The notes under the pieces: generated by a model
What the model saw: only the letters and a program-made list of their open reading frames with translations
Databases searched by the model: none
What the model was told of the DNA's origin: nothing
Program-made: the position numbers and the translations under genes
Origin: Candidatus Woesearchaeota archaeon
Lineage (GTDB): Archaea; Nanobdellota; Nanobdellia; Woesearchaeales; UBA10216
NCBI GenBank assembly: GCA_016184345.1
Contig: JACPCV010000005.1
Location: 97,017 to 161,016 of the forward strand
Direction of reading: 5' to 3'
DNA: 64,000 bases
In this document: positions 7,793 through 55,135 of the stretch, in pieces
How positions within the stretch are numbered: the stretch's first letter is position 1
Layout of the letters: the number at the start of each line of letters is the position of its first letter

Positions 7793-7794
7793 AT

Positions 7795-32829: not shown

Positions 32830-32859
32830 CGCCCCACAGCTGATTTGAATGCGATAACT

Positions 32860-34407
32860 ATGTCTGATGGCAAAAACAAAAAGGCCGCTGCAGCAGCCGA
32901 AGACAAAAAGACAATCGGGCTTACCGTAAAGAAATCCGAGGACTTCTCAGAGTGGTACACACAGGTAATCGCCAAGGCAGAGCTTGCAGACTACACGAAA
33001 GTGTCAGGATGCCTGGTGCTCAGGCCTTACGCATACGCAATCTGGGAAAAGATAGTCAAAGAGGTTGATGCAAGGCTCAAGAAGATGAGGGTGCAGAACT
33101 GCTACTTCCCGCTGCTCATACCCGAGAGCCTGCTCAAGAAGGAGGAGCAGCACATCCAGGGATTCGCGCCCGAAGTTGCCTGGGTAACCCATGCAAGCGA
33201 CACCAAGCTTGATGAGCGGCTCGCAGTAAGGCCTACTTCCGAGACAATAATGTACGATTCTGTCTCAAAATGGGTAAGGAGCTGGAGGGATTTGCCTCTC
33301 AAGCTTAACCAGTGGAACAACGTTGTACGGTGGGAGTTCAAGCACCCCACGCCCTTCATAAGGACAAGAGAATTCCTCTGGAACGAAGGACACACTGCCT
33401 TTGCCACAAAAGAAGAGGCAGAGGCCGAGATAGGGGAGATACTGTCGCTATGGAAGGATATCACTGAAAATTTCCTTGCAGTTGCCGGAATTACAGGGCA
33501 AAAAAGCCAGTCCGAGAAGTTTGCCGGCGCAGTTGCCAGCTACAGCATAGAATTCTTCCTCCCAAACGGCAGGGCAGCGCAGGGGCCTGACGCACACTTT
33601 GACGGCCAGAACTTTGCCAAGGCGTTTGACATCACATTCCTGAACGAGAAAGGCGAAAAGGATTATGTCTGGCAGAACACGTGGGCAATAACCACAAGGA
33701 TGATTGGCATACTGGCAATGGTGCACGGCGACGACAAAGGCTTGGTTATCCCGCCAAACATAGCGCCTGTACAAATAGTTATTGTCCCGATATTGTTTGA
33801 AGACTCCAAAAAGGAAGTCCTGGCAGCTGCAAACAAGATAAGAAAAGAGCTGGAGAAAGAAAGCATAGCTGCCGAAGTTGACGGCCGCGAGACTTACACT
33901 GCCGGCTGGAAGTTCAACGAGTGGGAGCTTAAGGGCGTCCCAGTCAGGATAGAAATTGGACCTAGAGACATGCAGCAGAAGCAGGCCATCATCGTAAGGA
34001 GAGACACATCAGCGAAGGAAACCGTCAAGCTGGAAGCTGTTGCAGCTGCCGCAAGGAAAACGCTTGCCGAAATCCAGGAGTCACTCTACCAAAAGTCAAA
34101 GCAGCAGCTTGAAAACAGCATTGTGGCTGCCAAAAACATTGGTGAAATCGCCACTGCAGTGAAAAGCAAGAAGCTCGCAAAAGCAGATTTCTGCGGCTCA
34201 GCAAAGTGCGAGGCAGAAGTCAAGGAAAAAGCGGACGGAGCAACCTCAAGGTGCATGACCCTTTTAGAACCCAAATCGACAGAAGCCGATTGGGCCCAGT
34301 CGTCGCAACGACTTGGGAAAGGGTCAATCCAAAAACGCGAACAAATGGGCAAATGCGTTGTGTGCGGAAAAGAAGGAGTTGCGAGCTGGTTTGGGAAGGC
34401 GTACTGA
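32860..34407 (+). CDS. proS: Prolyl-tRNA synthetase, archaeal type, with an in-frame repeat-derived insertion near the C-terminus
   Basis: FSEWYTQVI, RPTSETIMY, WNNVVRWE (class II motifs), and the C-terminal ..CVVCGKEG..WFGKAY end. Extra residues TLLEPKSTEADWAQSSQRLGKGS.. are encoded by the element at 34257-34325. Confidence 0.9.
   Translation: MSDGKNKKAAAAAEDKKTIGLTVKKSEDFSEWYTQVIAKAELADYTKVSGCLVLRPYAYAIWEKIVKEVDARLKKMRVQNCYFPLLIPESLLKKEEQHIQGFAPEVAWVTHASDTKLDERLAVRPTSETIMYDSVSKWVRSWRDLPLKLNQWNNVVRWEFKHPTPFIRTREFLWNEGHTAFATKEEAEAEIGEILSLWKDITENFLAVAGITGQKSQSEKFAGAVASYSIEFFLPNGRAAQGPDAHFDGQNFAKAFDITFLNEKGEKDYVWQNTWAITTRMIGILAMVHGDDKGLVIPPNIAPVQIVIVPILFEDSKKEVLAAANKIRKELEKESIAAEVDGRETYTAGWKFNEWELKGVPVRIEIGPRDMQQKQAIIVRRDTSAKETVKLEAVAAAARKTLAEIQESLYQKSKQQLENSIVAAKNIGEIATAVKSKKLAKADFCGSAKCEAEVKEKADGATSRCMTLLEPKSTEADWAQSSQRLGKGSIQKREQMGKCVVCGKEGVASWFGKAY
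34257..34345 (+). repeat. Structured element inside proS: 8-bp outer stem enclosing twin bulged hairpins, followed by an AATCCAAAAACG tail
   Basis: gacccttt (34257-34264) pairs with aaagggtc (34318-34325). Inner hairpins are cccaaatcg/cgattggg and cccagtcg/cgacttggg. The core is 69 nt, or 23 codons. Related to tRNA intron modules and to 5379-5476. Confidence 0.85.
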
Positions 34408-34409
34408 CA

Positions 34410-34544
34410 ATGCTTAATGACCAAGATTTTATTGTGAAAGCGCGACTTAAGGAAATAAAGGTCAATCCTTTAATTGGAAGATCGGAAAAAGAACTTGACG
34501 CTTACCTTGCAAAAAGAGGAGTAAAAGTTGTTCAGAATATTTAA
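34410..34544 (+). CDS. Small putative antitoxin (44 aa)
   Basis: MLNDQDFIVKARLKEIK.... Overlaps the start of the RelE-like gene by 17 nt. Confidence 0.4.
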   Translation: MLNDQDFIVKARLKEIKVNPLIGRSEKELDAYLAKRGVKVVQNI

Positions 34545-34857
34545 GTCGGCAACGTTTGATAAGGACTTCGATAAGCTTGATAATTCAGAGCAGAAGCGGG
34601 TAGATAAGATTCTGAATCAATTGCTGGAGCGCGGCGGCGAAGTTGGAAAGCCGCTTTCAGGATTACCTTTCTTTAAAGAAAAGAAGTTTGACGGGAAAAG
34701 GCTTTATTTCCTTGTTTATGAAAACCTTCATGTTGTTCTTGTTCTTGCAATAAGCGACAAAAAAGCGCAGCAAACTACTATTAATTTAATTCTGCGTGAC
34801 TTGGCACAATATCAGCAATACGTTCTTGCCGAACTTAAAAAGAAAGCAGTTACTTAA
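34528..34857 (+). CDS. relE: RelE/ParE-superfamily toxin-like protein
   Basis: TTG start. FDKDFDKLDNSEQKRVDKILNQL...GKPLSG...KFDGKRLYFLVYENLHVVLVLAISDKK is typical of a RelE-like addiction-module toxin. Confidence 0.55.
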   Translation: MFRIFKSATFDKDFDKLDNSEQKRVDKILNQLLERGGEVGKPLSGLPFFKEKKFDGKRLYFLVYENLHVVLVLAISDKKAQQTTINLILRDLAQYQQYVLAELKKKAVT

Positions 34858-35008
34858 ATTGTTTAGGCTTCCACTCGCTTATTCTGCCGTGCTTAACGTC
34901 TTCCAGGCTTCTGCGGATTTTTTCCACCAGTTCGTAATCTATTTCAGCCTCTTGTGCCTTCCTCTTAAGAGTCTCGTACTCTTCTTTTGAGATAGTTACT
35001 GTTTCCAT
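34850..35008 (-). CDS. Small ORF (52 aa), antitoxin-like; not in the supplied ORF track
   Basis: METVTISKEEYETLKRKAQEAEIDYELVEKIRRSLEDVKHGRISEWKPKQFK. Convergent with the RelE-like gene, overlapping its end by 8 nt. Confidence 0.35.
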   Translation of the reverse strand: METVTISKEEYETLKRKAQEAEIDYELVEKIRRSLEDVKHGRISEWKPKQFK

Positions 35009-35057
35009 TTCAGTTTAACGCTATTCAGAGTTTATACTATTTAAATTTTCCGCCTTT

Positions 35058-35108
35058 ATCGTGTGCGGCAAGGAAGGAACGGTTGCGTGGTTTGGAAAAG
35101 CTTACTAG
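35058..35108 (+). repeat. Displaced copy 2 of the proS 3' end
   Basis: Translates as IVCGKEGTVAWFGKAY*, against CVVCGKEGVASWFGKAY* in proS. The nt sequence has diverged mainly at synonymous positions. Confidence 0.85.
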
Positions 35109-35109
35109 C

Positions 35110-35409
35110 TTACTTTAGCATTCGTAGTTCTTTCTCTAAATCCTCTATTGAGTAGCTGGACCTGTAGCCGTTATCGACTAAGTACTGTTCCATCTCCCAA
35201 ATTGTGAGCTCTGCTTTGCGTGCCGCTTCTGAAATGCTTATCTTGCCCTTCATGTACTCGCCTGCAGCCTTTTTTTCCAACAGGGCTTTAAGTCCTATTG
35301 TAACCGCCTTCCTGATTATCGTGCTTCTATCCTCCAGTTCTGATTTTCCCAAGTACTCTGCCTTTTTTAGAATATCATCCGATAGCCTCACTCCCACCGC
35401 TGCTGTCAT
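35110..35409 (-). CDS. RHH/UPF0175-like antitoxin
   Basis: VRLSDDILKKAEYL...RSTIIRKAV (ribbon-helix-helix-like) followed by ISISEAARKAELTIWEMEQYL (UPF0175-like). Overlaps the upstream PIN-like gene by 4 nt. Confidence 0.5.
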   Translation of the reverse strand: MTAAVGVRLSDDILKKAEYLGKSELEDRSTIIRKAVTIGLKALLEKKAAGEYMKGKISISEAARKAELTIWEMEQYLVDNGYRSSYSIEDLEKELRMLK

Positions 35410-35906
35410 TTTGTGCCCTCCATTAAAGCCTTATCAAGTATAGCATCCCCGAACCAGCCAATCTTCCTCAATTCTGTGATGGATTCCTTAAACTTCATAT
35501 AGTCAATAAGCTTTGCAAGCTTTAGCCTGAGCACAATTGCCAACGTTCCAATCGTTCTTACGTCAATTAAAACCGCTTTCTTCCTTACATTGTCATCGTC
35601 GGTTGCCAGCATTTCTGCTTTTTCCTGCCAGTAGAGTGCAACTGCTTCAGCTTCCCCGCCTTTGATGTTAAACTCATTTGCCTTTTTAACCAAAGTAGCA
35701 TCCTTGACGCGTACAACCCTTAGTTTGCGCTCATTAACCAGATTCTCAACAACCCTCGCATCAGCATACCCTTTGCTTAAGCCTTCCATAACCTCTTCAT
35801 ACACCAGTCTTGGAGTGATAACTTCCTTAAAGTAACCACAGCTTTTCTCCAAAAGTGATATCTTGGCCAGATGGATTAAAACCATTGCATCCTTGACAAT
35901 CAACAT
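35406..35906 (-). CDS. PIN-like (DUF3368-type) toxin
   Basis: ATG at 35906, with tatttaaat 25-33 nt upstream. MLIVKDAMVLIHLAKISLL...LATDDDNVRKKA.... Confidence 0.5.
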   Translation of the reverse strand: MLIVKDAMVLIHLAKISLLEKSCGYFKEVITPRLVYEEVMEGLSKGYADARVVENLVNERKLRVVRVKDATLVKKANEFNIKGGEAEAVALYWQEKAEMLATDDDNVRKKAVLIDVRTIGTLAIVLRLKLAKLIDYMKFKESITELRKIGWFGDAILDKALMEGTK

Positions 35907-35977
35907 TTGTAATACAATGTGCACATTGTATATTTAAATGTTTCTGTTTCACTCAAAAATACAGAAACCCAGAAAAA

Positions 35978-36037
35978 GGCGGCTGTGCTGTGTGTGGCAA
36001 GGAAGAAATAGTTACGTGGTTCGGGAAGGCGTATTGA
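35978..36037 (+). repeat. Displaced copy 3 of the proS 3' end
   Basis: Translates as GGCAVCGKEEIVTWFGKAY*. Confidence 0.85.
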
Positions 36038-36068
36038 ACTTAGAGAATCAGAAAAAATGAGCATGACT

Positions 36069-37151
36069 TTAAGGTCTTCTTATCAACCTTCCTACACCAC
36101 TAAAATTAAACCTGCTAGCTAAGCCCTTAAGCCCTCTTCTGGCTGCCTGAGCCTGCCTCAGCCCAGCAACCTGCCTCTTGATGCCGATTGAGTTCAGCGT
36201 CCCTGTTTTAGTTTCTCCCTTCAAATCATTTAGCCGTCTTTGAATAAGCTGCTGCACTTTGTTAACGTCATTCCCCTCCAACGCCCTAAGCCCTGCCTGT
36301 ATTTTGTCAATGTCTGAGATGGCAGCTTCAAGCTGAAGTATTGCGTGTGGGATGTCATTTGCACGCAGGTATGCCTCTGCCTTTGTGAAATAATTGGTAA
36401 AAGCCCTCTCGAGTTGGCCTACAGCAACCGCGTGCGTTTCCAAAGTGCTCTTGACAGTGGCGACCTGCTCGTTTATTCTCCTCTTTGCGTCCTGCTCAAA
36501 CTTGCCCTTCACCTGTGCCCATTTCGCGTTGTTAGGTCCCTTGCCTGCCCAGCCAGAAGCTTTCCTCGCAACAATCTCTTCTGAAATCTCTTTCCTGGTG
36601 CCTGCAAACATTTTGTTAATGTTATTATTTTCAGCAATCTCAAGCTGTTCCAGCTGCCCGATTAGCCCCCTCAATTCCTGCTCCAAGTTACTAATCCTGC
36701 TTGAATACTGCACAATCTCGCCAACCTTCAGCCTCACTTCTTCAACAAGGTCTGGACTCTCTCTGCCGGCTTTAACCATTTTTCGTAAAGCATCAATCAT
36801 CCTCTTACAAGCGTTTTTGATTTCGTCCCAAAGCTTGCTCTCATTGAATGTCAGGCTCCGAATCATGCGAATATCAATGAGCTCCCTGGCTTCCTCCGCA
36901 AGCTCAGTAGCGCGCTCTTTTGCTTCAGTACCTTCCTCGGCAAGCGCAGCCTGGTCCTCAGCTGTTGCAACGGCAGCACTGCCTGGTCTGCTGCCGCCTC
37001 TGCCACCAAAGAGATTGCCGCCCCAACTGCCGCCGTCTCCACCCTGGTTGCTGTCTCCTCTAAATACGCCAATTACTTCTTTAATTGCTAGGATAACAAG
37101 GGCAACTTCCAAGAATCCAACAAAATCAGCTACAGCATCAAACAGTACCAT
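36069..37151 (-). CDS. Membrane-anchored Gly-rich/coiled-coil protein (FHA operon gene 3)
   Basis: The ATG at 37151 lies 1 nt after the upstream stop. N-terminal TM (FVGFLEVALVILAI), GGDGGSWGGNLFGGRGGSRPG, then a long helical region. The track's longer N-terminal extension overlaps the upstream gene. Confidence 0.6.
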   Translation of the reverse strand: MVLFDAVADFVGFLEVALVILAIKEVIGVFRGDSNQGGDGGSWGGNLFGGRGGSRPGSAAVATAEDQAALAEEGTEAKERATELAEEARELIDIRMIRSLTFNESKLWDEIKNACKRMIDALRKMVKAGRESPDLVEEVRLKVGEIVQYSSRISNLEQELRGLIGQLEQLEIAENNNINKMFAGTRKEISEEIVARKASGWAGKGPNNAKWAQVKGKFEQDAKRRINEQVATVKSTLETHAVAVGQLERAFTNYFTKAEAYLRANDIPHAILQLEAAISDIDKIQAGLRALEGNDVNKVQQLIQRRLNDLKGETKTGTLNSIGIKRQVAGLRQAQAARRGLKGLASRFNFSGVGRLIRRP

Positions 37152-37152
37152 C

Positions 37153-37869
37153 TTACTTTTTCGCCCCGAATCTTTGTAACTTTCTGGCGGCTGTGGCCGC
37201 GAGTTTAATGCCTCTTTTAGATATCTGCTCCAAACTGAACCTGTCACTAAAACGTATAAAGTATACTGTGGTGAGAATGCCAAAACCACGGGGAGTTCCC
37301 CCGCCACCGGTAAACTTGTCTGCCACAAAACCGCTAATGTGGTCAAGTATGTACAAAAGAAGTATGATAAAAACAAGTCTCGTAAGTGCTAGAATCCTTC
37401 CTGGCGGTACCATAGTTGGCAAGCCACCGTAAAGAAATGCGAGGAGTCCAATGGCAAGAAAACCAACCAAAGCCGCAGCCACAACAGTGCTGTAGCTTTC
37501 ACCAATGCCTATAAGTAATTGAGGGCTTATAAAAATACTGCCCACTGTGGCGAAAACCATTGCAATGGCCATGGAAGCTCCGCCTGCGAACATGCCTGCT
37601 CCTGCAGCACCACCTCCTAGTCTTCTAAGCGCTGTCCACACCACAGTAAAGACAACAATCCAGACCATTATTCTCATAAATCCAGCAAGCTTTGCAGCAT
37701 CATTATCCAAAAAGTTAAGTTGTGCTATGCTCAGTAAGCTATCAGAAGTCCTCTTCCAAAAATTCTCTCTCTGCGCAGCTACAGTCGCAGAAAGGGAGAG
37801 GAACATTACCGCAGCTATTACGACAAGTAGTAAGACTCTCTTATTGCCCTCATTCATTAATCTACACAC
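37153..37869 (-). CDS. Polytopic membrane protein (FHA operon gene 2)
   Basis: 238 aa with about 6 hydrophobic segments. Confidence 0.6.
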   Translation of the reverse strand: MCRLMNEGNKRVLLLVVIAAVMFLSLSATVAAQRENFWKRTSDSLLSIAQLNFLDNDAAKLAGFMRIMVWIVVFTVVWTALRRLGGGAAGAGMFAGGASMAIAMVFATVGSIFISPQLLIGIGESYSTVVAAALVGFLAIGLLAFLYGGLPTMVPPGRILALTRLVFIILLLYILDHISGFVADKFTGGGGTPRGFGILTTVYFIRFSDRFSLEQISKRGIKLAATAARKLQRFGAKK

Positions 37870-37953
37870 CTTTTTGGACTACTATAACTTAAACTATAAC
37901 CACTTTCTGATGTCTCTATATTTAAATATTTCTTCCAAGAAGGAGATTGCCAC

Positions 37954-38613
37954 CTACCGGATGTAAACTGCCAGCCTTGGCACATTTGGCTTCCCATCAG
38001 GTCCGGTGATTGCTGCTGGAGGGCGTAATGTGTTCTTGCCAGCCGCACCTGTTGCCGCAGCAACTATCCCAGACTGCGTGACAATGTCGTAATTAAAGCC
38101 GGGTAAAATAGTATCTCCATTTCTTAACAGCAGCCCATGCGGAGATATGTGGGCGTGAATGTTATAAACTTCTGCTTCATTGGTAACTGCGCTTCTGGTA
38201 AGGTAACCTGAAATGTCGTTTACGCCTCCAACATTTGTAACCTGGAAGCGCAACACAGGCAAGCCAGCAAATGCGCCACTCTGCCTGCGTTCAATCACCG
38301 TTCCATATCGGGAATTATCCTCATAGATGACAGTCCCGTCAGGAAGAAAAGACACTACTCCGTGGACACGAGAAACCCTTGCAAGTCTTGGAGGATCAAA
38401 ATTCCCGTCTAAGTTCAGGTAATCTGCAAGAACTGGCGCTCCTGCAAATGCGCCAAGAACAATACGACTGCCTCTGGTTTCAGTACTGGCAAGCACTTTT
38501 TTTGTTTCAGTATCCACTATCTCAACGAGCCTTCGCCTTGCCGATTCACTTGGAGGAACCGGCTTGACCAATTCCTGTGAAGGTTCTACACTCAAAAAAT
38601 CCCAAATCCCCAT
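37954..38613 (-). CDS. FHA-domain-like protein (FHA operon gene 1)
   Basis: RIVLGAF...LARVSRVHGVVSFLPDGTVIYEDNSRYGTVIE fits the FHA core (G.R..SR.Ha...DG...D.S.NGT). tatttaaat lies 24 nt upstream of the ATG. Confidence 0.55.
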   Translation of the reverse strand: MGIWDFLSVEPSQELVKPVPPSESARRRLVEIVDTETKKVLASTETRGSRIVLGAFAGAPVLADYLNLDGNFDPPRLARVSRVHGVVSFLPDGTVIYEDNSRYGTVIERRQSGAFAGLPVLRFQVTNVGGVNDISGYLTRSAVTNEAEVYNIHAHISPHGLLLRNGDTILPGFNYDIVTQSGIVAAATGAAGKNTLRPPAAITGPDGKPNVPRLAVYIR

Positions 38614-38636
38614 ACGTTACCCCTAGTAAGTAGTAG

Positions 38637-38645
38637 TATTTAAAT
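38637..38645 (-). promoter_or_regulatory. TATA box for the FHA operon
   Basis: tatttaaat lies 24-32 nt from the start codon at 38613. Confidence 0.5.
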
Positions 38646-38690
38646 CTTTCTATGTTTTTGGCTAAAAAATGAAAATTCAAGGCTTTAGAA

Positions 38691-39131
38691 CTAAAACCCC
38701 TGCGTTCCCCCGTATATTAGGAGGAAGCCTGTAACTATGTACAGCGTGTTGATGACGACTGCTGCAAGCTCGGGCAGGGTGAAGCCTATCACGCCAAAGC
38801 TGTGAAGCAGCGGGATAAGGCCGACTGCCAGCAGCACAAGCGCCATGACGAACGTTGCCATCCTTGCCATCTGGGCAAAGCCCATCATTGCCATGTTCTC
38901 TGAGATGGCGTTCCAGAGCAGGAAAACTGCCCCAAAAACGCTCAGGGCGTACAGGATAGTTTGCGGAAGCACAGGTATGGTAAAGCCGATTACTTTCATG
39001 CTGTTAAGAAGAGGGATGCCGCCAAAAGCGAGGAACACCAGCCCCGTGACAAGGCTTATCGGCTTTCTGGGGCCGCCCATCATCATGCCCTGGCCTTTTT
39101 TGCCCAGAAGCAACAGCATTAAGTGAACCAT
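38691..39131 (-). CDS. Small 4-TM membrane protein with internal duplication
   Basis: GGIPLLNSMKVIGFTIPVLP and VGLIPLLHSFGVIGFTLPEL are repeated halves. Confidence 0.55.
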   Translation of the reverse strand: MVHLMLLLLGKKGQGMMMGGPRKPISLVTGLVFLAFGGIPLLNSMKVIGFTIPVLPQTILYALSVFGAVFLLWNAISENMAMMGFAQMARMATFVMALVLLAVGLIPLLHSFGVIGFTLPELAAVVINTLYIVTGFLLIYGGTQGF

Positions 39132-39198
39132 CTACACACCTCTTACAGCAATTCGCGCAATATACTGCACTTCCAAGCACTTTTCACAAATCGTGTTT

Positions 39199-39600
39199 TT
39201 AAATGTTTCGCAGCAATTCCGCAGCTGTGACTATTTTTGCGCTTCTGAACTTTTTAAGCACTAGCAGGTCTTTATCGCCAGATATTATGTAATCAGCATT
39301 ACCCTCTAAAGCTGCCTCTAACAGCTTATTATCATCAGGGTCTCTGCATACGCTTCTTACCTTCTCTTTTGGCATAACAACCTCAGCTGCTTCGATAAGC
39401 GCGTTTACGAAGTCGTTAACCTCTTCCTCACTAAAGCCGAACTTAGGCCTTAAAGCTACCTCTTTGAATTCGTCAAGAACATCTACGGAAGTGATAATAA
39501 TAATTTCTCTCACAAAACATTTCTCAATCAGCCGGTACTCGTTCCCTTCCACTATAAGAGCAGAAATTAGGACGTTTGTGTCAGGAACTACCCGCAGCAT
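39199..39600 (-). CDS. vapC: PIN-domain toxin (VapC-like)
   Basis: MLRVVPDTNVLISALI...IISGDKDLL. Confidence 0.8.
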   Translation of the reverse strand: MLRVVPDTNVLISALIVEGNEYRLIEKCFVREIIIITSVDVLDEFKEVALRPKFGFSEEEVNDFVNALIEAAEVVMPKEKVRSVCRDPDDNKLLEAALEGNADYIISGDKDLLVLKKFRSAKIVTAAELLRNI

Positions 39601-39859
39601 GCCTTGCCTTCCTCACAGCCTTAATCTCCCTTGCAATGTCTTCCCTAGTTATGCCGCGCTCCTTGAAGCGCTTTGTAGCCTCGGCTGCTAATTCGCGAAA
39701 AACCTCAATCGGCTCTCTTTTCTTTCTTATCAAGATTGTGTCGTCTGAGTAAAAGAAGTCAAGAACTTGCCCCTCTTCCAGTTCCAGGGCCTCTCTTATG
39801 GAGGCGGGTAGCGTTATCTGACCTTGCCTTGTTATCTTATAAGTTCCTGCGGTCTTCAT
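39581..39859 (-). CDS. vapB: AbrB/SpoVT-type antitoxin (VapB-like)
   Basis: YKITRQGQITLPASIREALELEEGQVLDF. Overlaps vapC by 20 nt. tatttaaa lies 24 nt upstream. Confidence 0.75.
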   Translation of the reverse strand: MKTAGTYKITRQGQITLPASIREALELEEGQVLDFFYSDDTILIRKKREPIEVFRELAAEATKRFKERGITREDIAREIKAVRKARHAAGSS

Positions 39860-40053
39860 AATAGTATTTGTAGTAGAGATAGTATTTAAACTTTTCTGTT
39901 TTATTGCGCCATTGAAAAGTTGCCGTTGTTCGGCCAGCTTGACACTACCCGTTGCAGCTGTTCGGCAGCAGTGCAGCCTCCTTAGCGACCAAAAGCTTTA
40001 TATTCTTACATTTCTTACAAATAAGAAGAATAGACGATACGGAGGTGGTTGAG

Positions 40054-40302
40054 ATGGAGCTGCTTGAGATGAAGAGTGCCAAGATAACAAAGAAAGGGCA
40101 GATTGCCATTCCCAAAAGTGTAAGAAAGCTTGAAGGATTTAGTGAAGGCTCAAAGGTGGCAATTCTTGCGTTTAAGGACAGAGTTGAACTGAAGCCTATG
40201 AAGCAAATCAGCAGAATCGCGCTTACAGCCCTGGCAAGCGAAAAAACGCTTGCGAAAGACTGGGATACTAAAGAGGAAGATGACGCATGGAAAAACTTGT
40301 GA
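40054..40302 (+). CDS. mazE: AbrB/MazE-type antitoxin
   Basis: ggaggtg RBS at 40041-40047. KITKKGQIAIPKSVRKLEGFSEGSKVAI. Confidence 0.7.
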   Translation: MELLEMKSAKITKKGQIAIPKSVRKLEGFSEGSKVAILAFKDRVELKPMKQISRIALTALASEKTLAKDWDTKEEDDAWKNL

Positions 40303-40619
40303 AGGGAGACATAGTCGTTGTGCCGTTTCCTTTTTCCGACCTGAGCGCTTCAAAGAAAAGACCTGCACTTGTGATTGCATCTTTAACAGGAAATGACCTC
40401 ATTCTCTGCCAGATAACAAGCAAAGCAAAATTTGACGGCTATTCGATAAGCCTTGCCGGTGCAGATTTTGAAAAAGGAGGGCTGAATGTGCCAAGCAGGA
40501 TAAGGCCGAATCGGTTGTTTACAGCTGACAACTCAATAATCCTGTACAAAGCAGGCTCACTTCGGCAGGGGAAAATCAATGAGGTTGAAGAAGCACTGGT
40601 CAGGATAATCCGGGGTTAA
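40287..40619 (+). CDS. mazF: MazF/PemK-family toxin
   Basis: GDIVVVPFPFSDLSASKKRPALVI...RPNRLFT. Confidence 0.85.
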   Translation: MEKLVKGDIVVVPFPFSDLSASKKRPALVIASLTGNDLILCQITSKAKFDGYSISLAGADFEKGGLNVPSRIRPNRLFTADNSIILYKAGSLRQGKINEVEEALVRIIRG

Positions 40620-41449
40620 TGAGGTTAGGTATGCGCTTCATTACTGCAACTGATGTTAAGCTGAAAAAGAGGAAGCCTGACAGCCACAAAGGCGAGAACG
40701 GCCGCGTTTTGGTCGTTGCAGGCTCAATTGACTACGTTGGCGCTGCTTACCTGGCAGGGATGGCTGCTTTCCGGTCTGGTGTTGACGCTGTTGTCGTTGC
40801 AGCCCCTGAGAAGGTTGCGTGGGCAATCAACTGCCTTTCCCCTGATTTCATAACGAAGAAGTTCAGGGGCGATTTCTTCACAGCTGCGACAGCGAAGGAA
40901 ATAGTTGAGATGAGCAAAAAGTTTGACGTCACATTAATTGGCAACGGCGTAGGGAAAAGTATTGAAACGCTAAAATTTGCTGCAGCCGTATGCAGGAAAA
41001 TAGAAAGCACTAAAGTGATTGATGCCGATGCCATCTCCGCAGTGAGAATGCAGGAAGTGCAAAACGCCATATTCACGCCGCACCATGCAGAATATGACCT
41101 GCTGCTGAGAAATAGCCACTGTAGTGAAAAGCGACTGCAAACGGTTATTGGCACGAATGTCATACTGCTCAAAGGCAGGATAGATGCGATAATTGCAAAG
41201 GGAAAAACAGCTTACAACAGGACAGGAAACGCCGGCATGACGGTCGGGGGAACTGGCGACGTACTTGCAGGGCTTACTGCAGGCATTTTGGCGCAGGAAA
41301 AGGACCTGTTCAAGGCAGCAGCTGCGGCGGCTTACGTTAACGGGAAAGCAGGAGACCTGCTGCTGAGGGAATATGGCTATGGGTTCACTGCCAGTGATTT
41401 GCTCCAGGAACTGCCTGCTGTGCTGAAGCAGCTGTGGGGCATCGAATAA
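40619..41449 (+). CDS. nnrD: ADP-dependent NAD(P)H-hydrate dehydratase (YjeF C-terminal type)
   Basis: HKGENGRVLVVAGS..YVGAAYLA, TPHHAEY, GGTGDVLAGL. Confidence 0.85.
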   Translation: MRLGMRFITATDVKLKKRKPDSHKGENGRVLVVAGSIDYVGAAYLAGMAAFRSGVDAVVVAAPEKVAWAINCLSPDFITKKFRGDFFTAATAKEIVEMSKKFDVTLIGNGVGKSIETLKFAAAVCRKIESTKVIDADAISAVRMQEVQNAIFTPHHAEYDLLLRNSHCSEKRLQTVIGTNVILLKGRIDAIIAKGKTAYNRTGNAGMTVGGTGDVLAGLTAGILAQEKDLFKAAAAAAYVNGKAGDLLLREYGYGFTASDLLQELPAVLKQLWGIE

Positions 41450-41508
41450 GCACAATTTTACTTAAAATTTTAGTAAAATTTATAAATACTAAGGTTCTTA
41501 GTAATGTT

Positions 41509-41757
41509 ATGAGTGAAACGACTGTCGTAACACGGGGAAGTCAGATAACCCTGACAAAAGCCATAAGGGAAAAAACCGGCATAAGGGAGGGAGATACGGT
41601 TACACTAAACGTGGCTGGGGGAAATGTAATCGTTGCCAAAAGGGACCCGTCTGTGTTTGACAATCTTAAAAGATTCCTGCCTGATAATTTTGAAGAAATC
41701 CTAAAAAAGACGCGAACAGACGACAGGAAACGGTTAAAGAGGCTTGGCATTATTTAA
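41509..41757 (+). CDS. vapB: AbrB/SpoVT-type antitoxin (VapB-like)
   Basis: VVTRGSQITLTKAIREKTGIREGDTVTL. tttataaata lies about 25 nt upstream. Confidence 0.7.
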   Translation: MSETTVVTRGSQITLTKAIREKTGIREGDTVTLNVAGGNVIVAKRDPSVFDNLKRFLPDNFEEILKKTRTDDRKRLKRLGII

Positions 41758-41760
41758 ACA

Positions 41761-41913
41761 ACAGAATTCCACTCATCTATGATGAGTGGGGTTCTGTGTG
41801 CTCAAAAACCACCGGTTCGTGGAATTCTGAGCGTCAAAACAGCATCGGCAGCAGCCGATGCGTATCGACCCGAGGTCGATAAATGCCACCGGTCTCTGAC
41901 CGGTGGTTTTTGA
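41761..41913. repeat. Multi-hairpin element inserted between vapB and vapC
   Basis: Hairpins at 41769-41789, 41842-41861 (gcatcggc/gccgatgc, as at 8213-8232), 41863-41881 and 41887-41907. A 14-bp long-range stem pairs 41804-41817 with 41900-41913. Confidence 0.85.
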
Positions 41914-41926
41914 CAGGCGATAATTC

Positions 41927-42355
41927 ATGAAGATACTCTTTGACACCAGCGCACTGATAGAGCTGGAAAGGCAAAATCAGGAAGCTATTGTGCTTGTCAA
42001 AGGCTTAATCACAGGCAAAGAAGAAATTGTGATAAGCACCGTAACTATTTCTGAAGTATTGTTAGGCGTTTATTTCCAGAAAGCTTATGAAAAAATTGTA
42101 GAGGCCAAAAAGCTCCTATCCCAGTTTAAATGGATACCTTTGGATGAAAACATAGCCGATATGGCGGCCCAGTATGAGGCGTTGCTGCTGAACATTGGGA
42201 ACGAAATTGAATTCAAGGATGTTGCAATAGCCGCAACCTTTGCAGCCACGAAATCAGATTTTTTAATTACACAAAACAAGAGGCATTTTCAAATTTTGCC
42301 AGATATTGGAAACAGTGCCAAAACGATTGCAGAATTTAGCAAAATTTATCGGTAA
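41927..42355 (+). CDS. vapC: PIN-domain toxin (VapC-like)
   Basis: MKILFDTSALIELER...DVAIAATF...LITQNKRHF. Confidence 0.8.
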   Translation: MKILFDTSALIELERQNQEAIVLVKGLITGKEEIVISTVTISEVLLGVYFQKAYEKIVEAKKLLSQFKWIPLDENIADMAAQYEALLLNIGNEIEFKDVAIAATFAATKSDFLITQNKRHFQILPDIGNSAKTIAEFSKIYR

Positions 42356-42450
42356 ACATTTATATATCAGTGTATCTTTTAGTATACTAGAGATAGTGTG
42401 AAGACTACTCCGCGCTTATCAATGGCGCATCAAAAAAGGTGTCATTCAAT

Positions 42451-43977
42451 ATGGCAGCAGAGCATAATCCGGTTGAGCTTCTGAAGAAATACAATTTTGG
42501 AGAGCAGGAAGAAGCTGAGCTTGTCAGCGGGGTGAAGGAAAAGACAAATTACCCGAGCCCTGCTTACAGGTACAGGGTTGTGGTTGAGGCAGTGCACGCC
42601 TACATTGAGGAGGCTTACTACTGGACACTTGACGAGCTTGAGATGAGCTGGAGCTTCAACAAGTTTGACAAGATAACAGACATCCACGCAGCTTCAGAGC
42701 AGTCAGCTTTCTTCGGAGTCTCAGAGCAGCGCATTGGCCTGCAGCAGGACAAGGCGGCTCAGTACCTACGCGGGATAAGTGAGATGCTCAAGGCGCTTTT
42801 CCAGATAGTAAGGGAGCTCAGGGTGATAGATGAGCGCACTGGCTACTACAAGCAAACCTTCAACAGGAAAAACGAGGAAGAGGCAGTCGGCTCTGACATC
42901 ACGCTCAAAGGCGTGTGGGTGGACCAGGTTGAAGGCGGCACAAAGAACGCCGCATCGGTTTACGGCCTTGCGCAAACAGTCGGATTCTCTGTCCTGCCTG
43001 ACCTCTTCTTCAGAGTAAGGGCAAACGACATTGGGGGAGACAAGGCAAAGCCTGAGGAATATGATGCGTTTGTGAAGCGCGTAATTGAGGACGTTGACAA
43101 GAAAGTAAAGGGCATTGAAGGCTTTAACGAAAAAGTCAAGGAAGTGCTCACCAGAAAACTGGTGCAGTACTACATGTGGAAACTGCGCACATTCAAGGAG
43201 CTTGACGCGAGAAGGAAGTTCACCATAAAATACCTCAGGCAGCACTATGACACCATTAAGCTGTACATGGGCTGGATAAAGCCTTACCTCAGGAACATAC
43301 TCAAGCTGCAGATGGCGGAAAAGCTCATCCAGGGAGAAAAGGCAAGGGAGCTGATTACGGCATTTGAAGGCTCGCTAATTGAAGTTGAAGTCCTGTCGTA
43401 CAAGCACAGGGAAGGAAGGAAATTCCACCCGTGCGTGCTGCTGAATATTTTCTACAGGACCTCGCCGTCAATGGTGTACGTGCAGGAAGGCTACCAGAGG
43501 GGGCCTTCGCACACAGGCAAGTTTGACATGACACTGCGCGGCTACGTATGGAGTGATGAGCAGATTACGAACTACAAGCGCATGCGCGAGGAAGAGGACC
43601 TGCACATGCTCAGCATGATAAATGAGGACATTAAAGCATCAATGGACGCATTAGGGGATGAGCTTAAGCAGTACCTCAGGGAGGCAGGCGAGATTTTCCC
43701 TGAAGACGAGCAGAAGAGGGAAGAGCTGAAGACGTCAAACAGCCCGCTTGAGCCGTTCATTGGGGTGTTTGGCGGCCTGAAGGACATAGCGTCAGCATTC
43801 GGAGGTGCAAAGCCTGCCGGAGCTCCAAGCAAGCAGAGCATCAAGAAGCAACTCACCGGCGGAAAATCAGATGTCCAGCTTGACATCCAAATCACAGAAG
43901 CCAGGGAGGAGCTGAAAAGGGCAATCTGGCAGACATACAAGAACTACAAGAAGCTCCACGGCATGCTTACATGGTAA
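42451..43977 (+). CDS. Uncharacterised 508-aa protein (operon gene 1)
   Basis: Long ORF with a clean ATG. Largely helical and charged, with no motif I recognise. Followed 35 nt later by gene 2. Confidence 0.6.
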   Translation: MAAEHNPVELLKKYNFGEQEEAELVSGVKEKTNYPSPAYRYRVVVEAVHAYIEEAYYWTLDELEMSWSFNKFDKITDIHAASEQSAFFGVSEQRIGLQQDKAAQYLRGISEMLKALFQIVRELRVIDERTGYYKQTFNRKNEEEAVGSDITLKGVWVDQVEGGTKNAASVYGLAQTVGFSVLPDLFFRVRANDIGGDKAKPEEYDAFVKRVIEDVDKKVKGIEGFNEKVKEVLTRKLVQYYMWKLRTFKELDARRKFTIKYLRQHYDTIKLYMGWIKPYLRNILKLQMAEKLIQGEKARELITAFEGSLIEVEVLSYKHREGRKFHPCVLLNIFYRTSPSMVYVQEGYQRGPSHTGKFDMTLRGYVWSDEQITNYKRMREEEDLHMLSMINEDIKASMDALGDELKQYLREAGEIFPEDEQKREELKTSNSPLEPFIGVFGGLKDIASAFGGAKPAGAPSKQSIKKQLTGGKSDVQLDIQITEAREELKRAIWQTYKNYKKLHGMLTW

Positions 43978-44012
43978 CAAGGTTTTTATTCGGCAAGGCA
44001 TAGACACAGGTC

Positions 44013-44684
44013 ATGGTTACTGTTGACGAGCTCAAGAAGCTAAGCCCTGAAGAAAGAATCAAGCGGCTGAAAGAGCTTGAGGAGGAGCGCAAGAAGGAGA
44101 TAGCAGAAGCGGAAGAGCTAATCAAGGAAACAGCAAAGGAGCTTGCCGAAGCCGAGGAAAAAAGGAGGATACCGATTCCAGAGGCAAGGGCAACCGACCT
44201 GTCCACGCTTGACACGCTTGAGGAAAAACAGCTCGTCGCAACACACCACCTCCTTGCAGCGGAAACAACAGCAACCCACCAGCCGCAAAGCCCGCAGCAG
44301 CCAAAAAGCCTGGAGGAAGTCGCAGCAGAGGAAGCGCCTGCAGCAGGCCAACAAACGCAGCATGACCTTTTAGGAAAAGGTCAATCAAAATTACAAAAGC
44401 CCGAATACGCCATAGGCACGGAGCAACAGAGGCCAGCGTTCGGGGAATACCTTTCAAAATCGCAGCAGACAGTAACAGGAGGAACTCCCCCGGGCAGCAG
44501 CGAGCTGGAAAAGATTACGGAAATTTACAAGGACAGGGCAGTAACCGGAGCCGAGACAGGAGATGCCCAGCAAAAATACTTTGGCACGCAACAGCACGTA
44601 ACCGGAGGATATGAGCTGAGGAAAAGAGAGGAAGAGGACAGAAGGGAAAGAACAGAGTACAGAAGAAGGGGAGGGCCTGCTTAA
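44013..44684 (+). CDS. Uncharacterised 223-aa coiled-coil/low-complexity protein (operon gene 2)
   Basis: The N-terminus ELKKLSPEERIKRLKELEEERKKEIAEAEELIKE is coiled-coil, followed by a Q/T/E-rich tail. Its stop abuts the ATG of gene 3. Confidence 0.55.
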   Translation: MVTVDELKKLSPEERIKRLKELEEERKKEIAEAEELIKETAKELAEAEEKRRIPIPEARATDLSTLDTLEEKQLVATHHLLAAETTATHQPQSPQQPKSLEEVAAEEAPAAGQQTQHDLLGKGQSKLQKPEYAIGTEQQRPAFGEYLSKSQQTVTGGTPPGSSELEKITEIYKDRAVTGAETGDAQQKYFGTQQHVTGGYELRKREEEDRRERTEYRRRGGPA

Positions 44685-46643
44685 ATGATATTCAACCAGT
44701 CTTACTACACTGCAATGGACAGGGGCTATTACATGCCGCTGCAGGAAGGCCAGGGCCTGCCAGGAGAAAGCCCTGAAGCTATTCCCGAGATTGGAGTCAG
44801 CCCCAAGGACATTGGCGTTTCAGCCCATCCGGCACAGGACCAGCTCCAGCAGGTAAAGGCAAGGATATTCCAGGGCGCATCAAGGGTTGAGCTCGGCTTC
44901 TTCGGCAGGGGCAAAGGCAGCTTCCAGGGAGGGAACACAACCCCTGAAATGTACGGCAAGGAAGAAAGGATTGACATGAGGGAGCTTGCAAAGGTAAACA
45001 AGGTCAAGCTGACAACGCACGCAACAACAGGCGCAGGCAGCCTTGCAGGCATGGGTCAGCAGGGCTTTGATGAGCACGTAAGGGAGCAGGCCCTGCACGA
45101 GATAGAAAGGGCAGTTGACTTCGCAGCGGATGTAACGAGAGGCGGGGCAATTGTTGTGCACGCAAACGAGTTCCCAAGAGCCATAATGCCTGAGTGGGGA
45201 AAAGAAGGATTCTCAGCCTACCCTGAAGAGGAGAAAAGGGCAGTGTTCCACCTCGTTGACGACAGGAGCGGCCAGATGATGCCTGTCAGGAAGAACGACG
45301 TTTTCTATGAGCCAAGGTATAAGGACTACCCTGGTGACTCAACAGCCTGGCTAGGCATCCGCGGCCAAAGGATTCCCAAGAATACCCGTGACACAAATCT
45401 GCTGTTTGAACGCGTGCCGCAAGTAGAGTACGATCAGAACGGCGTGCCAAAATTCACCCCCAATAAAGTGACTTGGGATGAGATTGAGCGCAGGGCTGCG
45501 GAACTCAAGAAGGTTGACCCCACAGCAACACCGGAAAAACTTTTTTACCAAATTCAGATTGAGAACCAGATTGCCCAGGCAAGAGGCAGCTCGCTGTTCT
45601 ATGGGCTGCGCTACAAGGAATGGGAGGAAGATATTAAAAAGTTGCAAGCAGCATATGGATTTTACAAAAAGCTGGACGAATCCCTTCCTGAAAGCGAAAA
45701 ATGGAAGCTAAAGCAGTCACTACAATCAGGGGTATTCCTGCCGCCTGAAGTTGTCAATCCGGTCGAGTACCTCAAAGACAGGCTGGAGCAGATGGAAAAC
45801 CAGCTAAGGCAGGTTCACCAGTCCTCAGCAGCGGCAGACGCCCAGGCAGAACAGCAAAGAGAGAACCTTCTGCACCTTCATCCGATCAAAGAATATGCCC
45901 TCGGCAAAACAGCAGACACGGTAGCCAGGGCAGCCATATACGCCTGGGACAAGGAAAAGCACCTCCGCCAGGACGTTACCAACGGCGAGAAGATGGAAAA
46001 GCCGCTGTTCGTTGCTGTAGAGAATTACTTCCCTGAAGTTTACGGCGGGCATCCTGACGAGATTAAGGAGATAGTGACAACAGCAAGGAAGGCAATGGTT
46101 GATGAGATAATGAGAAACGGCGAAAAGTACGGCGTCCATGACAAAAGCGAGGCAGAAACGCTGGCGAAGGAGCACATCAAGGCAACATGGGACACAGGGC
46201 ATGCGTTCATCTGGAAAAAATACTTCAAAGGCAGCGATGAGGAGTTCAAGAGCTGGTACTTACAGAAGGCAAAAGAGTGGAAAGAGGAAGGCATAATGGG
46301 GCACGCGCACATCTCAGACAACTTCGGCTGGGAGGACGAGCACGTCATACCCGGGCAGGGCATCGCCCCAATCAAGGAATTTGTCTCATTAATACGGGAC
46401 AAGGTTGACAAAGGGGAGATTGACCTGATAGTCGAGCCGGCACACCAGGACTACCGAGCACTCCTGGGAGGCTGGAGGCTGTTTGGAAGCTCAATCTACG
46501 GCACTGCATTCGGGAAGAGGGACAGCTGGGTAGACTTGGAGAGAAGCTACTTCGGCCGCACAGCGCCGCCATACTTCCTCTACGGAGAAACAGCGCCAGA
46601 CCCGGAATCATGGACATTATGGAGTGGGCAAAGGCTGGAGTAA
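44685..46643 (+). CDS. AP-endonuclease-2 / xylose-isomerase-like TIM-barrel protein with a ~270-aa helical insertion (operon gene 3)
   Basis: Ordered metal-site motifs: KLTTHATT, AIVVHANEF, LFVAVENYF, ATWDTGHAFIW, GHAHISDNFGWEDEHVIPGQGIAPI, DLIVEP. The pattern is as in the Endo IV / sugar isomerase fold. Confidence 0.65.
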   Translation: MIFNQSYYTAMDRGYYMPLQEGQGLPGESPEAIPEIGVSPKDIGVSAHPAQDQLQQVKARIFQGASRVELGFFGRGKGSFQGGNTTPEMYGKEERIDMRELAKVNKVKLTTHATTGAGSLAGMGQQGFDEHVREQALHEIERAVDFAADVTRGGAIVVHANEFPRAIMPEWGKEGFSAYPEEEKRAVFHLVDDRSGQMMPVRKNDVFYEPRYKDYPGDSTAWLGIRGQRIPKNTRDTNLLFERVPQVEYDQNGVPKFTPNKVTWDEIERRAAELKKVDPTATPEKLFYQIQIENQIAQARGSSLFYGLRYKEWEEDIKKLQAAYGFYKKLDESLPESEKWKLKQSLQSGVFLPPEVVNPVEYLKDRLEQMENQLRQVHQSSAAADAQAEQQRENLLHLHPIKEYALGKTADTVARAAIYAWDKEKHLRQDVTNGEKMEKPLFVAVENYFPEVYGGHPDEIKEIVTTARKAMVDEIMRNGEKYGVHDKSEAETLAKEHIKATWDTGHAFIWKKYFKGSDEEFKSWYLQKAKEWKEEGIMGHAHISDNFGWEDEHVIPGQGIAPIKEFVSLIRDKVDKGEIDLIVEPAHQDYRALLGGWRLFGSSIYGTAFGKRDSWVDLERSYFGRTAPPYFLYGETAPDPESWTLWSGQRLE

Positions 46644-46652
46644 TAATTGATG

Positions 46653-47045
46653 CTACTTAACAAACTCCACGTTTTCTAGCCCTTCAAACTCCCTGTCGCC
46701 AGTAAGGAATTTTACTTTTAATTTCCTTGCCAAAACGTATCCGATGCAGTCAACGAAAGAAATATTACTTCCCTTTATCTTCGCCTTAATTTCCGCCCTT
46801 AAGGAAGCAGATTCCTTAATGGTTTCATCGCTGATTCCGACGCAAAAATCCTTGAACTCATTGAAAGCTATCTCTGCCGCGTTCCTTCCGTGCTTTACAA
46901 GATAACTGTAGTAAAGTTCCATGAGGTTCAGTTTTGTAGTCGCAATTCCTGACAGATTGCTGTAAGGTTCATAGGCTTCGTCGCCCTCTTTTATCTTGTG
47001 CAAGGCATATGTATCGAAGAAATAATTGCTCAATCTTTTCCCCAC
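46653..47045 (-). CDS. vapC: PIN-domain toxin
   Basis: YFFDTYALHKI...FVDCIGYVLA...FLTGDREF. Confidence 0.75.
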   Translation of the reverse strand: MGKRLSNYFFDTYALHKIKEGDEAYEPYSNLSGIATTKLNLMELYYSYLVKHGRNAAEIAFNEFKDFCVGISDETIKESASLRAEIKAKIKGSNISFVDCIGYVLARKLKVKFLTGDREFEGLENVEFVK

Positions 47046-47248
47046 CCTTCCCTAGCCCTGTCCTTGAATTTTTGGCTGTTTTCACCAGTCTTCAGGCTAC
47101 CAAAAATTTTGGATAGGTCTGCCTTCTTAATGACAATTGGAAGCGACAGGACGTCACCTTCCTTTATGTTTTGCATAGCGACAAGCTCCTTTGGCAGGAC
47201 TACGCCAAGAGAGTTTCCCCATTTTCTTACTACCGTTTCAGTTTCCAT
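47030..47248 (-). CDS. AbrB/SpoVT (MazE-like) antitoxin
   Basis: VVRKWGNSLGVVLPKELVAMQNIKEGDVL. Overlaps the PIN gene by 16 nt. Confidence 0.75.
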   Translation of the reverse strand: METETVVRKWGNSLGVVLPKELVAMQNIKEGDVLSLPIVIKKADLSKIFGSLKTGENSQKFKDRAREGWGKD

Positions 47249-55050: not shown

Positions 55051-55135
55051 AGTTGCATTCCATGATTAGCCTGTTTAGCTACTTCTGGAAGTTGCTAGCG
55101 GAAAGCTTAAATAAGCCTGCAGCATATATTTGAGC

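Follow-up and report, generated by a model that had tools for sequence, protein, structure and literature searches.

Toxin-antitoxin cassettes settled in a conserved stretch of a Woesearchaeota chromosome, with nested gene-end copies behind proS

The 13-kb interval between proS and lysK (positions 34408-47248) of a Candidatus Woesearchaeota archaeon is a conserved chromosome stretch invaded by toxin-antitoxin (TA) cassettes, and not a mobile island. It was studied within a piece of 64,000 nucleotides (nt) of assembly GCA_016184345.1 (contig JACPCV010000005.1, 97,017-161,016, forward strand), here called the window, to whose positions all coordinates refer unless a contig of a relative is named. 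Apart from TA genes the interval holds two blocks of uncharacterised genes, 'operon A' (A1 to A4, 39131-36069, minus strand) and operon B (B1 to B3, 42451-46643, plus strand), and the gene nnrD. The best overall explanation, held at a probability of about three in four, is an inherited backbone with settled TA cassettes, a housekeeping role for operon B and insertions at the proS end. The interval would be a vertically inherited piece of the Woesearchaeota chromosome (proS, A1, nnrD, B1-B2-B3 and lysK), in whose intergenic gaps type II TA cassettes settled at different times. MazEF and the AbrB/PIN pairs at 41509-42355 and 46653-47248, common to a genus-level relative, would be older residents and long-term addiction modules, and the two cassettes at the 3' end of proS would be the youngest insertions, brought in by recombination within the last 10-20 codons of that gene. 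A preliminary description of this DNA had taken the TA genes as the sign of an accessory island bounded by proS and lysK, with both blocks of uncharacterised genes as candidate defence or conflict systems. TA density is no marker of a defence island here, where the uncharacterised genes are core and the TA modules are the intruders.

The identities given earlier to the flanking genes and to nnrD were confirmed by Pfam. The proS gene (32845-34407, plus strand) encodes an archaeal-type prolyl-tRNA synthetase (ProRS; tRNA-synt_2b, HGTP_anticodon and ProRS-C_1), lysK (47299-48987, minus strand) a class I lysyl-tRNA synthetase (tRNA-synt_1f, 3.6e-94), and nnrD (40619-41449, plus strand) an NAD(P)HX dehydratase (Carb_kinase, 6e-47). 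The two uncharacterised blocks likewise consist of real open reading frames (ORFs), independent gene calls on contigs from the same population being in agreement. Gene order was then compared across contigs of relatives that carry homologues of B1, B3 or proS (numbered L001 and onwards), in which proS, A1, nnrD, B1-B2-B3, lysK and PGM are kept. In L001 the order is proS, two extra genes, a membrane/coiled-coil gene of 531 amino acids (aa), A1, a different PIN/VapB pair, MazEF, nnrD, one extra gene, an AbrB/PIN pair, B1-B2-B3, a PIN/AbrB pair, lysK, a transposase gene, PGM and an NTP-transferase gene; from the A1 homologue to lysK this is the gene order of the window, three TA pairs included. 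The contigs L002 and L005 (about 1.0 Mb) carry nnrD, a Na/H exchanger gene, B1-B2-B3, lysK directly downstream of B3, PGM and the NTP-transferase gene, with B1 at 57-61% identity. This stretch is TA-free in L005, and in L002 a solitary gene for a VapB-type antitoxin is all that lies nearby, with no full TA pair. The nnrD gene is syntenic in these three contigs and also in L059 and L062, where nnrD, B1, B3 and proS lie within 11 kb, and B1-B2-B3 is kept amid unrelated neighbourhoods in L004 and L096.

Sequence divergence tells of the same inheritance across the backbone genes. Identity to L001 is 77% for B1, 75% for lysK and 79% for nnrD, and identity to L002 is 61%, 60% and 60%, respectively, the divergence of B1 and B3 from their relatives paralleling that of lysK, proS and nnrD. 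The window ProRS is 65-76% identical to those of L001, L006 and L007, and its relatives agree with the taxon-named homologues of B1 and B3, all of which belong to Candidatus Woesearchaeota or Nanoarchaeota. An examination of GC content and codon usage, proposed in the preliminary description, gave a mosaic, with a core-like backbone set against low-GC TA genes. The GC content at third codon positions (GC3) is 0.54-0.69 in proS, A1, nnrD, B1, B3 and lysK, which have the codon preferences of the remaining window, and 0.24-0.52 in the TA genes, whose overall GC is 0.33-0.49 throughout and whose codon scores are neutral or negative; codon usage is atypical in A2 and A3 and intermediate in A4. No repeats join both borders of the 13-kb interval, no integrase or recombinase domain was found in the interval genes scanned, and in no relative examined is the interval absent with proS and lysK adjacent. 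Conserved synteny, tracking identities and mosaic composition therefore indicate a backbone with inserted cassettes and not one island; the term accessory suits the TA cassettes and A2-A4, and fails for the 13 kb as a whole, with its syntenic backbone and mosaic composition.

The clustering of TA modules in 34408-47248 was borne out. The interval contains six TA pairs and, as an orphan, one antitoxin-like ORF, and in the rest of the window (51 kb) only about two TA-like loci were found, namely a DUF2283 gene with a 110-aa neighbour in a low-GC patch (7418-8127, GC 0.44) and a Fic/Doc-family gene (55130-55519). The clustering is taken as real because nothing beyond these two was found elsewhere in the window; six of about eight TA loci fall in 20% of it (binomial P of about 0.001, a post hoc calculation made for this analysis). 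The two pairs next to proS are treated below. Further downstream, a PIN_3 toxin (39199-39600, Pfam PIN_3 4.5e-20) and an AbrB/MazE-fold antitoxin (39581-39859, Pfam MazE_antitoxin 1.5e-11) form a VapBC-type pair on the minus strand with a GC of 0.42-0.49, and the same slot in L001 holds an unrelated PIN gene with an RHH-type VapB. On the plus strand, MazE (40054-40302; Pfam MazE_antitoxin, 31 bits against a cut-off of 24.7) and MazF (40287-40619; Pfam PemK_toxin, 46.7 bits against 23.1) overlap by 16 nt and make up a MazEF module, which is conserved in L001 at 75-89% identity. The MazF stop codon and the nnrD start codon overlap by one base at 40619, and since this overlap is likewise preserved in L001 (6993-7325 and 7325-8152), MazEF appears welded onto a housekeeping transcription unit. 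An AbrB antitoxin (41509-41757, Pfam AbrB 2.3e-4, under the cut-off) and a PIN toxin (41927-42355, Pfam PIN 8.5e-12) follow on the plus strand. The last pair, on the minus strand in the gap where the 3' ends of B3 and lysK face each other, consists of a PIN toxin (46653-47045, Pfam PIN 2.2e-6) and an AbrB antitoxin (47030-47248, Pfam MazE_antitoxin 1.9e-9); it is conserved in L001 (58% and 80% identity) and absent from L002 and L005. Three pairs thus combine, as VapBC modules do, a PIN toxin with a small DNA-binding antitoxin in the same orientation.

The TA cluster itself is a known kind of thing. As in known type II modules (VapBC, MazEF, RelBE-like, and UPF0175 with DUF3368), the genes are built into small two-gene units in which they overlap or adjoin, most members exceed their Pfam cut-offs and are low in GC, and the same intergenic slot is occupied by different families in relatives. 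The conserved acidic residues of known PIN toxins also appear, on reading the sequences, to be kept. Unlike typical type II modules, some of the pairs look eroded, the partner of the RelE-like toxin being N-terminally shortened and AbrB being split from PIN by a spacer at 41758-41926, and one antitoxin-like ORF has no toxin.

Between proS and these pairs lies the block 39131-36069, which had been described as one minus-strand operon. Its ORFs stand, and its unity is doubtful: TATA-like boxes precede A1, A2 and A3, which suggests about three transcription units. A1 (38691-39131), a small membrane protein with an internal duplication and four membrane spans as judged from its sequence, has homologues of 49-73% identity at the matching position in L001, L002, L006 and L007, and among the window genes tested it ranks first both in GC3 (0.69) and in how core-like its codon score is. 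A2 (37954-38613, 219 aa), which has its own TATA-like box, is weakly FHA-like (Pfam FHA, residues 78-111, 15.9 bits under a cut-off of 20.7, E=0.017) and rare, with one other homologue (69% identity) in a word-indexed search of 5.8 billion proteins, and with 33% identity to the C terminus of a 527-aa protein of L002. A3 (37153-37857, 234 aa) has a signal peptide and transmembrane helices, and A4 (36069-37151, 360 aa; start taken as 37151 and not as the ORF start at 37376) has a transmembrane helix, a Gly-rich linker and a coiled coil; the A3 and A4 genes, also on the minus strand, overlap by a few bases. In L001, L006 and L007, A1 is adjoined by a single protein of 413-535 aa that combines a signal peptide and membrane helices with a Gly-rich linker and a long coiled coil, an architecture that in the window is divided between A3 and A4, with the split seen on all contigs from the same population. 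The composite 'operon A' is thus probably a cell-envelope module with a fast-evolving component, in which a conserved A1 would stand beside an envelope/coiled-coil gene split into A3 and A4, with the rare A2 in addition. It counts against this that the equivalence of A3 plus A4 to the single gene of relatives is drawn from position, architecture and a colinear similarity of E ~0.3 (to the 531-aa protein of L001). Neither A3 nor A4 belongs to a Pfam, NCBIfam or PADLOC family. Residues 118-171 of A4, in the coiled-coil stretch, weakly match phrog_17169 (unknown function, E=5e-6), probably for compositional reasons.

The proS-to-A1 gap is a flexible region beyond its TA cassettes, because L001 (1799-3832) and L006 (8825-10895) carry, between proS and their membrane/coiled-coil gene, two genes (encoding about 243 aa, and about 418 aa with TPR repeats) that the window and L007 lack. 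A2-A4 might accordingly be read as a variable module for conflict, surface variation or interaction with a host, defence included. A2-A4 being variable and compositionally atypical, such a role keeps a minority share of the probability, the largest among the rivals weighed here: A2 is near-unique, orthologues of the A3/A4 type score only E ~0.3, TA cassettes adjoin the genes, and the proS-to-A1 gap, 1.3 kb in L007, reaches about 5 kb elsewhere among the relatives. Set against this, searches of operons A and B in PADLOC-DB v2 gave only chance-level matches (LmuB, 0.0037, to a coiled coil; Cas8a, 0.0046), that for A2-A4 being to a coiled coil, and no enzymatic or nucleic-acid-binding domain was found in A2-A4. 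The A3/A4-type gene always stands beside the conserved A1, suggesting a standing cellular role. The conservation of A1, then, speaks against the earlier proposal of 'operon A' as a defence candidate, and the variability and atypical composition of A2-A4 leave room for a conflict or surface role, with no positive sign of defence; the envelope module is preferred.

The truly mobile part of the interval is 34408-36037, and the most instructive new detail of this analysis is the hotspot at the 3' end of proS with its nested remnants. The last 16-24 codons of proS are present in three in-frame copies, each with a stop codon: the functional end at 34343-34407 on the plus strand (copy 1, ending in CVVCGKEGVASWFGKAY), and two displaced copies at 35044-35108 (copy 2) and 35973-36037 (copy 3, ending in CAVCGKEEIVTWFGKAY), with a local alignment score of 54 as against at most 28 in 100 shuffles. 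Copy 2 closes cassette 1 (34408-35108, GC 0.39), which consists of a 44-aa antitoxin-like ORF, a RelE-like toxin and a 52-aa ORF, and copy 3 closes cassette 2 (35109-36037, GC 0.43), which consists of a UPF0175 antitoxin and a PIN-like toxin.

In cassette 1, the 44-aa ORF (34410-34544, plus strand) is the upstream partner of the toxin (34528-34857, plus strand), which matches the PHROGs family 'RelE-like toxin' at 1.3e-8. The toxin reaches 6e-4 (20 bits, under the cut-off of 62.85) in NCBIfam RelE/ParE (TIGR02683), aligns over nearly its full length to E. coli RelE from the PDB at E=0.65, and has no Pfam match. The 44-aa ORF begins 2 nt past the proS stop codon and lacks the N-terminal 23 residues of its 67-aa homologue in L008 (6781-6984), as if the antitoxin gene had been cut by the insertion junction. 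The 52-aa ORF (34850-35008, minus strand) is the orphan mentioned above; it is in no known family and is antitoxin-like by appearance only. In cassette 2, on the minus strand, the UPF0175 antitoxin (35110-35409; Pfam, 31.4 bits against a cut-off of 27.9) and the DUF3368/PIN-like toxin (35406-35924; Pfam DUF3368, 21.2 bits, under the cut-off of 27.3) are encoded by overlapping genes, with a match to the PADLOC candidate PDC-S70 at 1.5e-18 along the entire length.

Relatives supply the order of arrival. Cassette 1 is absent from L006, L007 and L001. L007 has an empty site, in which the membrane/coiled-coil gene and then A1 directly follow proS, and L006 has only cassette 2, directly after proS, with 63-72% protein identity and an in-frame remnant of its own (ending in VCGKEGVAAWFGKAY and a stop codon); window positions 35061-35945 align with L006 7693-8586. 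Copy 2 shares 88% identity with the functional end of proS in L006. Given the empty site in L007, the lone cassette 2 in L006 and the likeness of copy 2 to the L006 end, cassette 2 therefore came first, and so cassette 1 was inserted later, between proS and cassette 2. Each insertion would have been followed, on its far side, by a directly oriented copy of the gene end, still in frame, giving the nesting proS, cassette 1, copy 2, cassette 2, copy 3. The nested remnants are in this way a record of the successive arrival of cassettes from different TA families.

The same signature, always in direct orientation, was found by nucleotide local alignment in 5 of 64 loci, four of them beyond the window. 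Besides L006, these include L060, with HicB and HicA followed by an in-frame remnant (..WALFGKGY and stop), L029, with a HicAB-like cassette followed by the remnant ..KFWAVFGKGY and stop, and L008, with a UPF0175 gene and the 67-aa homologue of the RelE partner. A strict peptide pattern for additional proS ends, applied to 85 loci, found none outside the window, and beside nnrD, lysK, B3, A4, A1, MazF and PIN2 no gene-end remnants rose above the shuffle background. The recurrence of the signature with other TA families in relatives marks the proS 3' end as an integration hotspot; the literature search turned up no account of TA modules inserting there. The pattern agrees with recombination into a gene end, as practised by integrative elements that use the 3' ends of tRNA or protein genes: direct repeats of the target end bracket the insert, the target gene stays intact, the insertions are nested and the site is used recurrently across lineages. 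Unlike such elements, the units in the window are only 0.5-1 kb long and consist of a TA pair with neither an integrase nor a donor found, and unlike the TA cassettes of Vibrio superintegrons they come with no attC-like sites or integron integrase seen in the window.

Several results weigh against site-specific insertion. For 34408-36037, direct repeats of the target end were found, as was an empty site in relatives; neither a cognate recombinase nor an element in free or donor form was found. No integrase or recombinase was found in the cassettes or the scanned window ORFs, and because of this the mechanism of insertion is drawn from the pattern of ends. A degenerate proS-end pattern gave no hits in viral contigs, two uninformative ones in metagenome contigs and no donor element, and public groundwater contigs aligned to 33800-36400 included no joints and no excised or empty-site form. 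A doubtful alternative, given somewhat less weight than the conflict reading of A2-A4, is that the copies are long target duplications, or arose by local duplication or gene conversion followed by drift, and are not remnants of attachment (att) sites. It would account for the missing recombinase and for the identity profile of proS against L006 and L007, which has no clear crossover point, and the L060 remnant, short (about 29 nt) and near-identical to the functional end, is what target duplication predicts. The copies, at 27-65 nt, exceed typical transposon target duplications, however, and copy 3 is a little closer to the native ends of L006 and L007 (83%) than to the functional end of the window (75%), as copy 2 is like the L006 end, which, on small numbers, fits displaced older ends. 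Insertion at the proS end therefore remains the preferred reading, and the site offers a tractable system for how TA cassettes that lack an integrase move in archaea.

Operon B is very likely a core housekeeping module and not a defence system. B1 (42451-43977, 508 aa; likeliest start 42451 in an ORF that opens at 42439), B2 (44013-44684, 223 aa, charged and of low complexity) and B3 (44685-46643, 652 aa) are encoded on the plus strand, tightly spaced in the window and overlapping in L004 and L005. B1 has at least 1226 homologues; searched against 1.84 billion representatives, its profile yields 677 clusters at 50% identity. The listed members are mostly 440-560 aa long, and the shorter among them are chiefly fragments cut at the N terminus. 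Between B1 and B3 stands a gene of 142-229 aa in L001, L002/L003, L004, L005 and L096, with conservation confined to the N-terminal ~70 residues of B2 (tblastn against L001, L002 and L004). B1 belongs to no Pfam, NCBIfam, PADLOC or PHROGs family, and a sequence-profile search of the PDB gave nothing. In its AlphaFold2 model, residues 23-85 together with 312-372 make up a beta-sheet whose two halves are separated by a long helical hairpin (92-141 and 231-298); Foldseek comparison with the PDB and with viral structures (BFVD) found no match of E<1e-3, only coiled-coil look-alikes. A beta domain split by a helical hairpin is likewise the topology of EnvC and membrane-fusion proteins (8tzl_E, E=0.011, non-significant), from which B1 differs in having no signal peptide or membrane helix as read from the sequence, and no homology is claimed. 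A domain shared by B1 and B3 was sought with hhalign, which showed none.

The catalytic subunit of the module would be B3, whose sequence supports a predicted active three-metal phosphodiesterase of the endonuclease IV (Endo IV) type. It scores 48.4 bits with Pfam AP_endonuc_2 (cut-off 31.1), the one informative family that PADLOC, NCBIfam, Pfam and PHROGs gave for the proteins of operons A and B, and the nearest solved relative by sequence is MJ1311 (PDB profile match, 2.6e-7), a predicted archaeal Endo IV homologue according to Kiyonari et al. (PMC2770678). The AlphaFold2 model of B3 (predicted local distance difference test, pLDDT, 83) has E. coli Endo IV as its best fold match (1qtw, E=6.6e-4, probability 1.0), and the top Foldseek matches (1qtw, 1qum and 2nq9, all at probability 1.0) place it among xylose-isomerase-like TIM barrels. 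The metal ligands of E. coli Endo IV (Nfo), H69, H109, E145, D179, H182, H216, D229, H231 and E261, have motif-matched counterparts in B3, H112, H159, E446, D503, H506, H542, D551, H553 and E584, which are invariant in 52 homologues of 37-87% identity. The corresponding motifs (Nfo/B3) are LTTH/ILPH, VVHAN/NFHPG, VAVEN/AVIEN, WDTGHAF/IDTCHAF, AHISD/MHLND, EDEH..PGQG/VDRH..LGEG and LIVEP/LILET. B3 thus shares the TIM-barrel fold, AP_endonuc_2 and the nine metal ligands with the Endo IV/Nfo family, including MJ1311 (3wqo). Unlike Nfo (about 285 aa), it is 652 aa long, has about 280 additional residues (approximately 165-440), forming a beta subdomain and long helices, inserted after barrel strand 3 and before strand 4, and shares its operon with two proteins of unknown fold. 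B3 probably works with B1 and B2: it would most likely cut DNA at abasic sites or remove 3' blocking groups, probably in a complex with B1 and the partly disordered B2, given the tightly spaced or overlapping genes. That it is the Endo IV-type repair nuclease of the lineage is a tentative assignment, with the odds somewhat against it.

Several observations pull against these assignments. When B3 is aligned by hhalign to the single Nfo sequence, only the C-terminal six ligands align, at low probability, and the first three ligands are matched by motif and barrel-strand position only. The Endo IV-like Pyrococcus protein PF1383 has no apurinic/apyrimidinic (AP) endonuclease activity (PMC2770678). 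Confidence in the B1 model is only moderate (pLDDT 75). B3 was nearby in two of the three distant B1 members examined, and the distant B1 homologue in L095 (6001-7569, profile E=1.3e-92) has neither B2 nor B3 adjoining.

Two kinds of neighbouring gene were observed at distant loci. A gene for a Pol-beta-type nucleotidyltransferase (262-356 aa) directly follows B3 in L096 (5748-6536) and in the JGI 3300072015 locus, and lies two genes downstream of B3 in L004 (15268-16338); the window B3 is not followed by one. This enzyme may be a facultative fourth member of the module. In L095, a tyrosine integrase gene lies 5 kb upstream of the B1 homologue.

The preliminary description's candidacy of operon B for defence did not survive. 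B1-B2-B3 could be imagined as a conflict system fixed in the lineage, for instance with B3 as nuclease effector and B1 as sensor or scaffold, and a nuclease-like B3, TA modules flanking the operon in the window and in L001, a nucleotidyltransferase near B3 in three distant loci and a B1 fold with no known relative would be in keeping with it. This is very improbable, however: the operon is lineage-conserved and matches no PADLOC or PHROGs family, its divergence and synteny look vertical, like those of aminoacyl-tRNA synthetase genes, and its codon usage is core-like. In L004, L005 and L096 its neighbours are housekeeping genes with no TA or defence genes among them (no TA within 10 kb in L004 and L005), and the family is large and uniform in length, unlike patchy defence genes. 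Least probable of all is the horizontal acquisition of the entire 13 kb as a single accessory or defence island with operons A and B as cargo. A high TA density, parts of the interval with a GC as low as 0.42-0.46 and uncharacterised genes among the TA modules would favour it. Against it, relatives keep A1, nnrD and B1-B3 in synteny at 45-79% identity, these genes have core-like codon usage, and no integrase, no outer-border repeats and, in the relatives examined, no proS-lysK adjacency were found.

Two bolder readings are speculative and rather unlikely. In one, TA cassettes without an integrase would be self-contained mobile units, directed at the final codons of proS by a trans-acting recombinase or by host recombination. 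In the other, B1-B2-B3 would be a Woesearchaeota-wide machine in which B1, of unknown fold, and the partly disordered B2 steer the insertion-bearing B3 to a substrate different from ordinary abasic DNA, in a core process peculiar to these ultrasmall archaea. With operon B as a housekeeping module, not described in the literature searched, the window offers a lead for DPANN archaea, a conserved three-gene module of a large uncultured lineage whose catalytic subunit can be assayed as an Endo IV-type enzyme. B1 has no detectable structural relative and is thus a well-defined target for structural and interaction work.

Other features of the window are incidental. The genes around the interval are of housekeeping type and include those for a Hel308-type helicase, a geranylgeranyl-reductase-like flavoprotein, PGM, an NTP-transferase, a MiaB-like enzyme and SRP54. 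A single tRNA gene (tRNA-Arg, the sole Rfam match in the window) is distant from the interval, and no meaningful tandem repeats were found in the region. The 169-nt spacer 41758-41926, which separates AbrB from PIN where the corresponding genes overlap in L001, folds into several near-perfect hairpins (minimum free energy -86.3 kcal/mol, z -10.3) and contains the inverted repeat AAAACCACCGGT at 41805 and 41899. An Rfam search of the spacer gave no match, and it could be an insertion resembling a miniature inverted-repeat transposable element or a small RNA.

The proS gene itself carries an in-frame insert of about 66 nt (34259-34330) that adds about 21 residues and corresponds to a gap in proS of L006 and L007. 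It is a double-hairpin repeat of about 60 nt (CCCAAATCG..CGATTGGG CCCAGTCG..CGACTTGGG) with no Rfam match at the gathering threshold. Related intergenic copies lie at 5425-5485 and 30528-30590, and another at L008 4961-4976. The intergenic copies fold at z -5.2 and -4.7, and the proS copy at only z -1.9. In groundwater runs the depth at the proS insert is about 8-fold that of the contig, and assemblies break at 34256-34336.

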